Source: a phage. From it: a stretch of DNA of 64,000 bases. Each line of letters opens with the position of its first letter. The stretch's first letter is position 1. Of the stretch, positions 20,416-63,522 are shown piece after piece. The notes below the pieces were generated by a model that saw only the letters and a list, made by a program, of their open reading frames with translations, was not told the DNA's origin and did no database searches. The DNA lies in NCBI GenBank assembly GCA_024572335.1, contig GCA_024572335.1_3052.1; one strand, 5' to 3'. The position numbers and the translations under genes are program-made.

Positions 20416-20450
20416 TTCATTCTCCAAATCCGTATCAGTAGTTGATATTG

Positions 20451-20483
20451 ATATAGTACCATGGAAGAACAGTCTTGTAAACA
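20451..20483 (-). promoter_or_regulatory. Early promoter of a repeated promoter-leader cassette
   Basis: A/T-rich UP-like run, GTTTAC, GGTACTATAT -10, then conserved leader with SD GGAGA. Confidence 0.55.
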
Positions 20484-20570
20484 GTTTTGTGAAAAAATTT
20501 TTAATGAATTCTAAAGGTCCAGAATCATCTGTTTTTCATAAGTATAGATTTATATTACTTGTATGAAAAA

Positions 20571-34504: not shown

Positions 34505-34534
34505 ATAATACCACAGTTTGAGCTTGTTGTAAAC
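34505..34534 (-). promoter_or_regulatory. Early-type promoter
   Basis: GTTTAC, about 17 nt, GTATTATTA; SD GAGGA. Confidence 0.45.
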
Positions 34535-34614
34535 AACTTTGTGAAAATTATTTTAGGGAATGATAAGAAGGGAACGATAGCTTAGAATGGTAATATACAG
34601 AATGTGAGAAAGAA

Positions 34615-34629
34615 AGGCCCAGAGGGCCC
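34615..34629 (-). terminator. Terminator after nrdH
   Basis: GGGCC-UCU-GGGCC hairpin then UUUCUUUCU. Confidence 0.55.
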
Positions 34630-45122: not shown

Positions 45123-45146
45123 TTTTGTTCCTCCGTAGTTGATAGT

Positions 45147-45179
45147 TGCATAGTACCACAGAGGAACGGTCTTGTAAAC
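45147..45179 (-). promoter_or_regulatory. Early promoter
   Basis: GTTTAC, 17 nt, GGTACTATG; SD GGAGG. Confidence 0.5.
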
Positions 45180-46554: not shown

Positions 46555-46586
46555 TTTATTCTCCAAATCCGTATCAGTTGATAGTT

Positions 46587-46618
46587 GTATAGTACCATAA
46601 AGCTTTATGCTTGTAAAC
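46587..46618 (-). promoter_or_regulatory. Early promoter of the repeated promoter-leader cassette, upstream of the AAA+ ATPase
   Basis: GTTTAC, 17 nt, GGTACTATAC; conserved leader and SD GGAGA. Confidence 0.55.
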
Positions 46619-46648
46619 CGTTTTGTGAAAAATTTTTGAAATAAAAAA

Positions 46649-60571: not shown

Positions 60572-60904
60572 TTATTCTTCGTCCAATTCATCAATAAATT
60601 TATCGATACTACTATTAATAGACTCATCGATGATTAACAAAGCATCATCATCTATAATATTAATATTTTCTAAAGCATCAATATAAGCTTGATTGACTAT
60701 AGACCATGCCCTTTGAAAATATGGGGTTTCATCATCAGGACTGAACCAACGTACACCTTCAAAGATACGTTTAGCATAATCCAACACCCATTGTACAGGC
60801 ATGTTTTGAGAGCGTTCATTAAACTCTTCAAAGTCCTTAGATTCAAAAAGCTCTTCAGGATAATAATTTCTATTACAAAAAGCTTTACTAAAGTTACGTT
60901 TCAT
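60572..60904 (-). CDS. Hypothetical acidic protein
   Basis: 110 aa ATG ORF. Confidence 0.4.
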   Translation of the reverse strand: MKRNFSKAFCNRNYYPEELFESKDFEEFNERSQNMPVQWVLDYAKRIFEGVRWFSPDDETPYFQRAWSIVNQAYIDALENINIIDDDALLIIDESINSSIDKFIDELDEE

Positions 60905-60960
60905 AATGTTCTCCTCAAAGTTATAGGCTCATAATATCTCAATCATGAGCCTGTGTAAAC

Positions 60961-61224
60961 TTATTTCATATTATTGAAATATTCTTCAGCAATTTCATCA
61001 TTATCATGATAAACTTTAGAAGACAGTTTAACATAACTTTCAGCAGTGAACATGTTAATCACAACCTTTACAGTATACCACTGACCATCTTCATTACCCA
61101 TTACTGCGTAAGTTTCAAACAACGGATGATCAGGACCGATAACTTTAATATCATTCACTGTACGACCGAAATCTTCTGAAACACATTTCATAAAGAAGTT
61201 GAACAGTTCGCCGTAATTATCCAT
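60961..61224 (-). CDS. Hypothetical small protein
   Basis: Track start TTG at 61287 lies in a promoter; ATG at 61224 follows SD GGAGA. Confidence 0.4.
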   Translation of the reverse strand: MDNYGELFNFFMKCVSEDFGRTVNDIKVIGPDHPLFETYAVMGNEDGQWYTVKVVINMFTAESYVKLSSKVYHDNDEIAEEYFNNMK

Positions 61225-61265
61225 TTCGTTCTCCAAGTTGTTTTCTGTATCAGTAGTTGATAGTT

Positions 61266-61297
61266 GTATAGTACCATGGAAGGACAAGGATGTAAAC
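61266..61297 (-). promoter_or_regulatory. Early promoter of the repeated promoter-leader cassette
   Basis: GTTTAC, 17 nt, GGTACTATAC; conserved leader and SD GGAGA. Confidence 0.55.
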
Positions 61298-61327
61298 CGT
61301 TTTGTGAAAAAATTTTTAAAAAGTTTT

Positions 61328-61351
61328 GGGGAATTCTAGGGCAGGGAGGGG
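61328..61351 (+). other. G-quadruplex-forming motif in non-coding DNA
   Basis: GGGG-N7-GGG-N2-GGG-N1-GGGG on the plus strand in an otherwise AT-rich genome. Confidence 0.5.
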
Positions 61352-61434
61352 AAATCAAAGGATAGGATAATATATTATAAAGGGTAGAAACTAAATGATG
61401 TCTAGAGAGGCCTGGAAAGGCCTAGATACCAAAA

Positions 61435-61458
61435 AGCCCCAACCTTTCGGCTAGGGCT
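61435..61458 (-). terminator. Terminator after the IP-like gene (copy 1 of a repeated hairpin)
   Basis: AGCCCxAGCCGAAAGGUUGGGGCU bulged hairpin followed by U5. Confidence 0.65.
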
Positions 61459-61465
61459 AAGAATG

Positions 61466-61939
61466 TTATTTGATTTGTTTAGCAGACCAAATGCGGTCTT
61501 TAATAATTTTTTGGATGTCTTCAACATACTCAAGAGAGTGAGCATGTGGGTTATCTTTGAAACTATAAGCACGAGCTAACTTTTGACCTTCAGTTTTGAT
61601 TACTAAAAGCTCTTTAAGGATAGCTTCATATTTGGAGATAATTCCTTTAACAATATTTTTCTCTTGTGCGACTTTAGGATCTGCTTTAGGAGCAGGTTTA
61701 CCCGAAGCCTTTGCAAAAGCAGCGCCAGTAGCAACTAAACTTTTCCAGGCCATACTAACTGCATTTCCCGTAAATCCTTCTGCTTTCATGTCGCGAGCAA
61801 ATTGGAATCGTGATTCATCAGAAGCATCTTTATAGGAATATTTACCCGCTGCAATGGCTGCTTTTGCGACAGCTTGAATTTCGGTGCTAGACGCTTCATT
61901 TAACACCGCTTCATTTAAAAATTGAGTATATGATTTCAT
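61466..61939 (-). CDS. Internal-protein-like gene with capsid-targeting-like N-terminus
   Basis: 157 aa; N-terminal MKSYTQFLNEA; late promoter TATAAATA upstream; flanked by duplicated terminator hairpins. Confidence 0.5.
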   Translation of the reverse strand: MKSYTQFLNEAVLNEASSTEIQAVAKAAIAAGKYSYKDASDESRFQFARDMKAEGFTGNAVSMAWKSLVATGAAFAKASGKPAPKADPKVAQEKNIVKGIISKYEAILKELLVIKTEGQKLARAYSFKDNPHAHSLEYVEDIQKIIKDRIWSAKQIK

Positions 61940-61975
61940 CTTATTTCCTGTTTTAATTTGTAGATTTAATATACT

Positions 61976-61983
61976 TATTTATA
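61976..61983 (-). promoter_or_regulatory. Late promoter upstream of the IP-like gene
   Basis: TATAAATA on minus strand about 35 nt upstream of ATG 61939. Confidence 0.55.
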
Positions 61984-61989
61984 CTAAAA

Positions 61990-62013
61990 AGCCCCAACCT
62001 TTCGGCTGGGGCT
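61990..62013 (-). terminator. Terminator after the tRNA/stable-RNA region (copy 2 of the repeated hairpin)
   Basis: AGCCCCAGCCGAAAGGUUGGGGCU followed by U5. Confidence 0.7.
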
Positions 62014-62064
62014 AAGCCTTGCGGCAACCTTGTCGGGGTTCCACCTGCTAAGGCAAGTGTTTGT

Positions 62065-62157
62065 ACGAAACGCCGGGATTCGAACCCGGTTATCAAGCAG
62101 TTGACGCTACTCAATATTTTTAAAAGGCCATATCTCGACCATATCCGAACGTTCCGT
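62065..62157 (-). ncRNA. tRNA-like stable RNA candidate (T4 rnaC/rnaD-type)
   Basis: 8-bp acceptor-like stem (ACGGAACG/CGTTTCGT) enclosing a perfect T-arm CCGGG-TTCGAAT-CCCGG but about 60 nt of non-canonical internal sequence. Confidence 0.3.
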
Positions 62158-62324
62158 CAAAAACGCTACTCGGCTTACGGCAAAGATATTTCCTCGAATC
62201 GATAATTCGGTGCGCCGTTTCTGCTGTGATATAAGGGGACATTAACAAAACATAAAGATTTATTAATGCCAGTCCTTAAACAGGGAACATCAGTCCGACG
62301 ACTTACCGGTAGCGACCCGGTTTC

Positions 62325-62675
62325 TTAATATTCTTTTAAAGCATCAATCTGTTCACGGCGTTTACGCCATAAATCAATTGCTTCATACGCAGATTCAGCA
62401 TTTCGAATTAGCCGGCATTTATGTAAAGACTTATGATTTTGATATTGTGTAGATAATGGAATTGTATCTAAAAGGTCTTTACGATCAAAGTATTCGTAAC
62501 CATCTAAACCAAATGAACGATTTTTGAGAAATTGCCAATGGCCAAATTCATTTTCAACATAAACATAATCTGCATGCTGATAAAGTAAATTAATTACACG
62601 TTCAGAAATAGCAGTATCATTATGATTAAAATAGAATGTTAAATCATGAACTACTAAATAAACATTACCTTTCAT
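62325..62675 (-). CDS. Hypothetical protein within the tRNA region
   Basis: Track ORF 62325..62723 starts at TTG inside tRNA-Arg; ATG at 62675 follows SD GAGGA. Confidence 0.4.
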   Translation of the reverse strand: MKGNVYLVVHDLTFYFNHNDTAISERVINLLYQHADYVYVENEFGHWQFLKNRSFGLDGYEYFDRKDLLDTIPLSTQYQNHKSLHKCRLIRNAESAYEAIDLWRKRREQIDALKEY

Positions 62676-62693
62676 ATTTTCCTCACTTATAAT

Positions 62694-62770
<77 letters not shown>

Positions 62771-62777
62771 TATTTTG

Positions 62778-62849
62778 CGGACGTGATAGGATTCGAACCT
62801 ATAACCAATCGCTTAACAGGCGATCGCTCTGCCATTGAGCTACACATCC
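62778..62849 (-). tRNA. tRNA-Asn (anticodon GUU)
   Basis: Acceptor GGATGTG/CACGTCC, D-stem GCTC/GAGC, anticodon stem ATCGC/GCGAT, loop CTGTTAA, T-loop TTCGAAT; CCA not encoded. Confidence 0.8.
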
Positions 62850-62853
62850 AAAT

Positions 62854-62940
62854 TGGTGGGGAGTGGTGGAGTCGAACCACCCGAGTCGCAATGACAATGA
62901 ATTTACAGTCCACACCGCTACCTCTACGGGATAACTCCCC
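62854..62940 (-). tRNA. tRNA-Tyr (anticodon GUA), long variable arm
   Basis: Acceptor GGGGAGT/ACTCCCC, anticodon loop CTGTAAA, variable arm TGTCATTGCGACTCG similar to E. coli tRNA-Tyr; CCA encoded. Confidence 0.75.
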
Positions 62941-62949
62941 AAATTAATT

Positions 62950-63024
62950 TGGTGGCCCTGGGTGGAATTGAACCACCATCTGGCGATTATGAGTCGCTTG
63001 CTTGAACCTTCCAGCTACAGGGCC
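62950..63024 (-). tRNA. tRNA-Ile (anticodon CAU, lysidine-type as in T4) or Met
   Basis: Acceptor GGCCCTG/CAGGGCC, anticodon loop CTCATAA, T-arm GGTGG-TTCAATT-CCACC; CCA encoded. Confidence 0.75.
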
Positions 63025-63025
63025 T

Positions 63026-63101
63026 TGGTGCTGATTAACGGAATCGAACCGCCGACCTTCTCATTACAAGTGAGTTGCTCTACCTACTGAGCTAAATCAG
63101 C
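63026..63101 (-). tRNA. tRNA-Thr (anticodon UGU)
   Basis: Acceptor GCTGATT, D-stem GCTC/GAGC, anticodon loop CTTGTAA, T-loop TTCGATT; CCA encoded. Confidence 0.85.
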
Positions 63102-63106
63102 AAAAC

Positions 63107-63196
63107 TGGCGGAGGCGATAGGATTTGAACCTATGAGTCGCCGGAGCGACTGCCGGTTTTCAAGACCGGTGCATTAAACCACTCTGCCACGCCTCC
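63107..63196 (-). tRNA. tRNA-Ser (anticodon UGA), long variable arm
   Basis: Acceptor GGAGGCG, anticodon stem CCGGT/ACCGG, loop CTTGAAA, long variable arm; CCA encoded. Confidence 0.85.
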
Positions 63197-63198
63197 AG

Positions 63199-63272
63199 TC
63201 TCCATACAAGGATTTGAACCTTGGACCTCCTGATCCCAAATCAGGCGCTCTACCAAACTGAGCTACACGGAG
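63199..63272 (-). tRNA. tRNA-Pro (anticodon UGG)
   Basis: Acceptor CTCCGTG, anticodon stem CCTGA/TCAGG, loop TTTGGGA, T-loop TTCAAAT; CCA not encoded. Confidence 0.85.
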
Positions 63273-63282
63273 TAAATTAAAT

Positions 63283-63356
<74 letters not shown>

Positions 63357-63361
63357 AAATT

Positions 63362-63448
63362 TGGTGCGAGAAGTGGGACTCGAACCCACAAGGAAATCAT
63401 TCCGCAGCATTTTAAGTGCTGTGCCTTTACCAATTTGACCATTCTCGC
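63362..63448 (-). tRNA. tRNA-Leu (anticodon UAA), long variable arm
   Basis: Acceptor GCGAGAA, anticodon stem CAGCA/TGCTG, loop CTTAAAA, long variable arm, T-loop TTCGAGT; CCA encoded. Confidence 0.85.
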
Positions 63449-63449
63449 G

Positions 63450-63522
63450 CTGGGAATAAAGGACTCGAACCTTTGCATCCTGGAATCAAAATCCAGTGCC
63501 TTACCAACTTGGCTAATTCCCA
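63450..63522 (-). tRNA. tRNA-Gln (anticodon UUG)
   Basis: Acceptor TGGGAAT/ATTCCCA, anticodon stem CTGGA/TCCAG, loop TTTTGAT; CCA not encoded; separated from tRNA-Leu by 1 nt. Confidence 0.85.

Follow-up and report, generated by a model that had tools for sequence, protein, structure and literature searches.

A canonical G-quadruplex motif at a terminator/early-promoter junction of a T4-like phage is probably an incidental run of G-tracts

Introduction

Studies of T4-like phages have described PeSLs, composite cassettes in which a stem-loop terminator is combined with an early promoter (PMC2839356; PMC4122927), and the early promoters of T4 and PST follow the consensus TTTACW-N17-TAYWAT (PMC4122927). 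T4 early promoters also share extra consensus sequence beyond the sigma-70 elements, early transcription of T4 depends in part on termination by Rho, and rut sites have been described as lacking structure and being frequently rich in C (PMC2988021). The T4 homologue of the terminator considered here has been reported to end a tRNA/species I RNA transcript of about 1.75 kb (PMC2330249). As for G-quadruplex motifs, they are established as obstacles to polymerases and as a cause of instability in Escherichia coli (PMC10530614). Our literature search returned nothing specific on quadruplexes in T4-type phages.

The present work concerns a G-rich stretch in the window, by which we mean the whole 64-kb piece of phage DNA that was analysed. 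The window comes from a Tequatrovirus (T4-like), and its identity in this region is 99% with the Shigella phages ESH35 and SHBML-50-1 and about 92% with T4. The original prediction, made from the letters alone, placed a canonical G-quadruplex motif in an intergenic spacer between an early promoter and the terminator of an 'IP-like' gene. Here we describe the junction that carries the motif, the behaviour of the motif in related phages, and the explanations that may account for it.

Results

Every gene in the neighbourhood of the motif is on the minus strand. The features of the junction are collected in Table 1, in which the gene order was taken from annotated relatives and from T4.

Table 1. 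Features at and around the e.8 junction of the window
Feature	Position	Strand	Basis
Ten tRNA genes	63522-62694	-	annotated relatives and T4
132-aa ORF (phrog_3355), then rnaD and rnaC	between tRNA-Arg and the upstream terminator	-	annotated relatives and T4
Terminator copy 3' of rnaC	61990..62013	-	terminator scan
TATAAATA late-promoter consensus, 37 nt 5' of the ORF157 start codon	61976..61983	-	consensus scan
ORF157 (157 aa; homologue of RB32ORF132c; phrog_2280, function unknown)	61466..61939	-	homology
Intrinsic terminator AGCCCTAGCC-GAAA-GGTTGGGGCT followed by TTTTT, ending the ORF157 transcript	61429..61458	-	scan; annotation of relatives
Spacer of about 115 bp, from the terminator to the UP element of the promoter	61320..61434	both	skew, alignment
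Canonical G-quadruplex motif GGGG-N7-GGG-N2-GGG-N1-GGGG	61328..61351	+	regex scan, G4Hunter, shuffles
A/T-tract UP-element region AAAACTTTTTAAAAATTTTTTCACAAAACG	61297..61327	-	promoter scan
T4-type early promoter core TTTACA, 17-nt spacer, TACTAT, with TGG directly 5' of TACTAT	61268..61296	-	
e.8 (87 aa; phrog_2678, function unknown)	60961..61224	-	GGAG Shine-Dalgarno at about 61233-61236

The junction shares most of its parts with a PeSL. It has a stem-loop terminator, whose stem-loop proper spans 61458-61435 with the T-run after it, an AT-rich region (80% A+T in the 25 nt 5' of the promoter), a sigma-70-like promoter of the TTTACW-N17-TAYWAT type (TTTACA-17-TACTAT), and a Shine-Dalgarno sequence (GGAG) with a start codon (ATG at 61224) at its 3' end. 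The promoter is annotated as 'predicted early promoter' in phage fPS-65. Like a PeSL, the junction also lies in a hyperplastic region, beside alternative cassettes (rnaC, ORF157 or RB14ORF136 type), and close relatives differ there by indels and replacements, with three upstream modules and 36-bp repeats. It differs in one respect: the published cassettes have the stem-loop just 5' of the promoter, whereas here a G/C-skewed spacer of about 115 bp stands between the two. The orthologous junction of Dhakavirus has the compact PeSL form.

The promoter block at 61247-61319 is repeated at 20432-20504, 46576-46637 and 45135-45158, which is typical of T4 early promoters, and the homology ends just before the G-runs. 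Within the A/T tracts of the UP region (61305-61327), an 11-bp indel distinguishes the window and T4 (GTGAAAAAATTTTTAAAAAGTTTT) from the RB14 type (GTGAAAAAATTTTT) and moves the upstream sequence by about one helical turn. A separate rearrangement is seen in Escherichia phage AV121 (395-440), which has lost the e.8 5'UTR and the core early promoter, so that the ATG is fused to UP-element sequence; a canonical G-run motif then lies about 25 nt 5' of the e.8 start codon, and a Shine-Dalgarno sequence is not evident.

The sequences that meet the spacer on its upstream side vary among relatives. Three modules occupy this place: rnaC in T4 and T2, the ORF157 cassette in the window, and a different ORF with its own hairpin in RB14-type phages. 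The ORF157 cassette, which is missing from T4 and T2, consists of the late promoter, the ORF and the terminator, and on either side of it stand 36-bp direct repeats of the terminator, at 61426-61461 and 61981-62016, that are 94% identical. In the alignment of relatives, the cassette breakpoints fall within the hairpin of the terminator, some 90 bp away from the motif. The ORF157 site thus looks like the product of cassette swapping by recombination at terminator/promoter linkers. In T4, the intergenic region between rnaC and e.8 (NC_000866 70624-70907) is homologous over spacer, promoter and terminator, with 92% identity. It differs in having no ORF157 cassette, with rnaC directly abutting the terminator, and in having only three G3 tracts (AGGG...CGGAGA...GGGG). 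The homologous hairpin there ends the tRNA/rnaD/rnaC transcript.

The 'IP-like' label given to the gene upstream of the spacer found little support. BLASTP returned no alignment of ORF157 with T4 IPI, the one internal protein that was compared, there was no Pfam match, and phrog_2280 has no assigned function. The late promoter and a loose resemblance of the N-terminus MKSYTQFLNEAVLNEA to T4 internal-protein leaders (MKSYTQF... against MKTFKEF...) are what speaks for the label.

Further upstream, the tRNA cluster of the window (62325-63522) holds ten genes (Gln, Leu, Gly, Pro, Ser, Thr, Met/Ile-CAU, Tyr, Asn and Arg) and no segB. The T4 cluster differs in that it holds eight tRNAs and has segB inserted between Arg and Ile. 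The 132-aa ORF lies between tRNA-Arg and rnaD, and a version of it starting at TTG overlaps tRNA-Arg by about 30 nt.

The motif itself, GGGGAATTCTAGGGCAGGGAGGGG, reads GGGG-AATTCTA-GGG-CA-GGG-A-GGGG, in exact agreement with the pattern originally given for these letters; four runs of at least three Gs stand on one strand, separated by loops within the canonical 1-7 nt. A regex scan with that definition (G3+, loops 1-7) found no other match on either strand of the 64-kb window, and the site remained the sole match when the loops were widened to 1-12. As judged by 1000 dinucleotide-preserving shuffles, in what is a post-hoc test of a single site, the number of such motifs expected per window is 0.000 for the plus strand and 0.023 for the two strands combined, so that the occurrence exceeds chance and the motif is indeed unusual for DNA of 34.4% G+C. 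The 24-mer has a G4Hunter score of 2.0, against 1.2 in the runner-up 25-nt window. Shuffling of the local G-rich spacer yielded a canonical motif in 0.15-0.4% of trials, and the clustering of the Gs into runs is therefore not explained by composition alone. With a G4-aware energy model, whose RNA parameters make the values indicative only, the window variant was assigned -13.8 kcal/mol with the quadruplex and -2.9 without it. The same model, again as an indication only, predicted that the window and RB14-type variants form a quadruplex and that those of T4, RB18 and Mosigvirus do not.

The surroundings of the motif had also been described correctly in several respects. Promoter and terminator scans place it between an early promoter and a terminator, at about -67 to -90 from the inferred transcription start of e.8 (~61261); the stretch 61339-61398 ties as the most purine-rich 60-mer of the window (46 of 60); and the ORFs across the motif reach just 33-56 aa, in frames broken by indels in relatives. 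The strand had been misassigned. Since the local genes are all on the minus strand, the plus strand with its G-runs is the template and not the non-template strand, and the sense strand carries the complement CCCCTCCCTGCCCTAGAATTCCCC.

The motif forms part of a longer stretch of unusual composition. Nowhere in the window is the G>C skew stronger than at 61321-61420, with 33 G and 7 C on the plus strand (z 5.1-5.7 for window sizes of 60-120). The minus-sense RNA made by read-through of this stretch would be untranslated, with 33% C and 7% G, and would have 28 YC dimers in 115 nt; its predicted fold showed no significant structure (z = -0.58). The runner-up in C>G skew of the minus-sense RNA, 34518-34617, has the same layout, in which a terminator (GGGCCCTCTGGGCC and a T-run) is followed by a pyrimidine-rich spacer, where TTCCCTAAAA is found, and then by an early promoter (-35 hexamer at 34533).

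Other functions were considered for the spacer. There was no Rfam match in 60900-62800 save tRNA-Arg, the minimum-energy fold of the read-through RNA did not contain anti-Shine-Dalgarno pairing of the C-tracts with the e.8 GGAG, and the DNA fold of the plus strand gave no hairpin that would compete with or support a quadruplex (z = +1.05). Three small ORFs (33 aa on the plus strand, 56 aa on the minus strand and 19 aa on the plus strand, starting at 61396), some of which automatic annotations label 'hypothetical protein', do not keep their frame, given that relatives carry indels of 11, 2 and 1 bp and different terminator sequences. Inspection by eye revealed no middle promoter (MotA box TGCTT) in the spacer, and the consensus scan revealed no TATAAATA late promoter there. 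On the plus strand, TATAAATA was absent from the whole window, which leaves no obvious plus-sense late RNA. The TATAAT at about 61379-61374 (minus strand) was rejected as a promoter, since its only -35 is poorly spaced and is itself not conserved in T4. The element CCCTAGAATTCC, tried as a repeated sequence, was not enriched, with 38 matches in the window against 39 expected (at most 3 mismatches).

Two palindromic features of the spacer can be added. A perfect 12-nt AT palindrome, ATAATATATTAT (61367-61378), belongs to a spacer block that hardly any relative has altered, and the palindrome holds a perfect minus-strand TATAAT without a usable -35. A small hairpin, AGGCC-TGGAAA-GGCCT (61409-61424), with two StuI-like palindromes, lies just 3' of the terminator in the minus sense. 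In T4 and other phages, variants of AGGCC-N6-GGCCT pair in the plus sense through G-T wobbles only and are broken in the minus sense, the changes being few.

The conservation of the motif was assessed in 29 sequences, namely the window and 28 others (20 phage records, picked across the identity range of 546 BLAST matches, two IMG/VR contigs and six metagenome contigs), a phylogenetically unweighted sample of more than 500 available genomes. The spacer can be aligned throughout. The 24-mer occurs in 13 variants, and four G3 tracts are kept in 20 of the 29 sequences. One tract has been lost in the remaining nine, by seven different changes in tracts 1, 3 or 4: CGGAGA (T4), TCAGGA (RB18), CAGAGA, CAGGAA, GAGAGG, GAGTGG, and GTGG plus GAGG. 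The T4 variant, AGGGAATTCTAGGGCGGAGAGGGG, retains only three G3 tracts, and a bulged quadruplex would still be possible in four of the nine broken variants.

Nucleotide diversity was 0.096 in the motif and 0.091 at the third codon positions of e.8 (counted from the ATG at 61224-61222). The other values obtained were 0.058 for the spacer outside the motif, about 0.06 for the UP region with the promoter, and 0.03 for the 5'UTR. Among the Gs whose single loss destroys the canonical pattern, five of ten positions are variable, compared with five of the 14 other positions. What is invariant in the motif is loop 1 with its flanks (GGAATTCTAGGG) and not the tract pattern. The tracts are thus not kept better than neighbouring or neutral sites, and we found no sign in the alignment of selection on the quadruplex-forming arrangement. 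Variable sites are fewer in the surrounding spacer (15 of 77) than at the third positions of e.8 (36 of 89), and the spacer as a whole may be under some constraint.

Five sequences besides the 29 were available for comparison with other genera, which also have e.8 homologues. At the e.8 loci of the Dhakaviruses IME08, AnYang and LHE83 (positions 580-640), whose e.8 proteins are 80-86% identical, the terminator hairpin directly abuts the early promoter, with neither spacer nor motif. Mosigvirus ChristianSchoenbein (positions 555-600) has lost about 65 nt from the central part of the spacer, and its motif is broken (GTGG...GAGG). In Karamvirus KaAlpha the spacer is pyrimidine-rich and about 95 nt long, its complement is without G3 tracts, and the motif is absent. 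Both spacer and motif therefore appear to be dispensable for e.8 expression in related phages. Conservation in relatives, by which the original prediction was to be judged, is accordingly mixed and leans towards the negative: the four tracts stand in most of the sampled sequences, and they are absent from T4, from eight others, and from the regions upstream of e.8 in the Dhakavirus, Karamvirus and Mosigvirus phages that were compared.

Discussion

Our results suggest, with a probability of about 0.65, that the motif is an incidental run of G-tracts without a quadruplex-specific function, in a dispensable spacer of a terminator/early-promoter junction. The intrinsic terminator ends the upstream unit, which is the late-promoter-driven 157-aa gene in the window and the tRNA/rnaD/rnaC precursor in T4, and about 115 bp further on the sigma-70 T4 early promoter, with its A/T UP element, starts the e.8 mRNA. 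Both steps are seen from the sequence and from homology. Only polymerases that read through the terminator would cross the G-runs, and their RNA would then contain the C-rich complement. The four-tract arrangement appears to drift at a neutral rate and to have been lost repeatedly in relatives, while the junction is kept, probably as a shared recombination linker beside swappable gene cassettes. The locus is clearly a further example of the known PeSL-like cassette swapping at a terminator/early-promoter linker.

The main alternative is that the C-rich, G-poor RNA made by read-through loads Rho in the manner of a rut site and so reinforces the intrinsic terminator. The e.8 early promoter would then be insulated from upstream late and tRNA transcription, and the G-runs would be merely the DNA complement of the C-runs. 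Known rut sites, such as rutA and rutB of lambda tR1, consist of C-rich, G-poor RNA, and the spacer RNA is like them in its C-runs, its intergenic position, its length of about 100 nt (some 70-100 nt being typical of Rho utilisation sites), its weak structure, its lack of translation and its skew (z 5.7), which in the minus sense is the most extreme C>G skew of the 64 kb. That the second-most skewed stretch of the window shares the layout of terminator, pyrimidine-rich spacer and early promoter is also in line with this alternative. Regular spacing of the C residues speaks against it. A RhoTermPredict-like rule reportedly calls for six Cs spaced 11-13 nt and a C/G ratio of at least 3 in 78 nt; this rule is passed by 34513-34593 and does not flag the minus-sense spacer, because a C-free AT palindrome of 16 nt interrupts it, a result to which we give little weight. 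Further arguments against Rho loading are that Dhakavirus e.8 loci do without the spacer and a Mosigvirus has deleted most of it, that no part of the spacer varies more than the C-runs, and that an efficient-looking intrinsic terminator stands right before the spacer and an early promoter right after it, so that the window of termination would overlap the start of e.8. We regard this alternative as unlikely.

A second possibility, which we consider quite improbable, is that a DNA G-quadruplex does form on the plus strand, the template, while the DNA is being transcribed, replicated or recombined, and that it would act there as a roadblock to read-through polymerases, a replication pause site or a recombination hotspot at the cassette junction. 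The motif resembles the promoter quadruplex elements of viruses and bacteria in its exact (G3+N1-7)x3 G3+ pattern, its high G4Hunter score and its nearness to a promoter. Its loops are short (7, 2 and 1 nt), the strand has no competing hairpin, the energy model would favour the folded form, and the motif adjoins a junction at which relatives have three different upstream cassettes. Unlike those elements, it is on the template strand, 5' of the UP element and outside the transcribed region, and its tract pattern is not kept in close relatives and is absent in distant ones. Outside any transcription unit, between a terminator and a promoter, the strand should rarely be opened. The seven independent disruptions among the relatives, the missing fourth tract of T4, the predicted failure of the T4, RB18 and Mosigvirus variants to fold, the drift of the motif at the synonymous rate, with the critical Gs not spared, and the distance of the cassette breakpoints from the motif all weigh against a quadruplex that is used by the phage. 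It has also been considered that the G-/C-run tract is a polymorphic insulator between the swappable late-gene cassette and the e.8 early promoter, working as a template-strand quadruplex roadblock or as Rho-loading C-rich RNA. The 'on' variants (the window phage, T2 and the RB14 type) and the 'off' variants (T4, RB18 and Mosigvirus) would then set how much read-through enters the e.8-e.1 operon, a proposal that we hold to be very unlikely. Least probable of all is the idea that the invariant (T)TTT-GGAATTCTAGGG, or the whole spacer, is a protein-binding or far-upstream element of the e.8 early promoter to which the G-runs are incidental. Its core at 61330-61341 does not vary among the 29 Tequatrovirus-type sequences or the Mosigvirus sequences, TAGAATTC stands at the matching relative place of the paralogous early promoter at 20481 and TTCCCTAAAA is carried by the promoter at 34533, and the 11-bp indel of the UP region preserves the helical phase of the tract. 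This idea would also fit the extra consensus of T4 early promoters (PMC2988021). On the other hand, in a spacer with about 80% invariant columns, chance alone is expected to give invariant runs of at least 12 columns, and further along there is a longer one. Moreover, CCCTAGAATTCC is not enriched in the window, the other early-promoter-like sites there (about 25) have no GGAATTCTAGGG-type element, and the e.8 promoters of Dhakavirus are without the invariant core.

Taken together, the reading of the G-runs as an incidental feature of the spacer indicates that a skewed spacer in an AT-rich phage can produce, as a by-product subject to drift, a quadruplex motif that stands out statistically. In its present state the finding is of little consequence, apart from putting the strand assignment right. 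If it were true that the motif or its C-rich transcript acts on read-through, the junction would offer, for a T4-type phage, a rare case of an insulator based on non-B DNA or on Rho loading, one for which natural on and off alleles would exist among its relatives.
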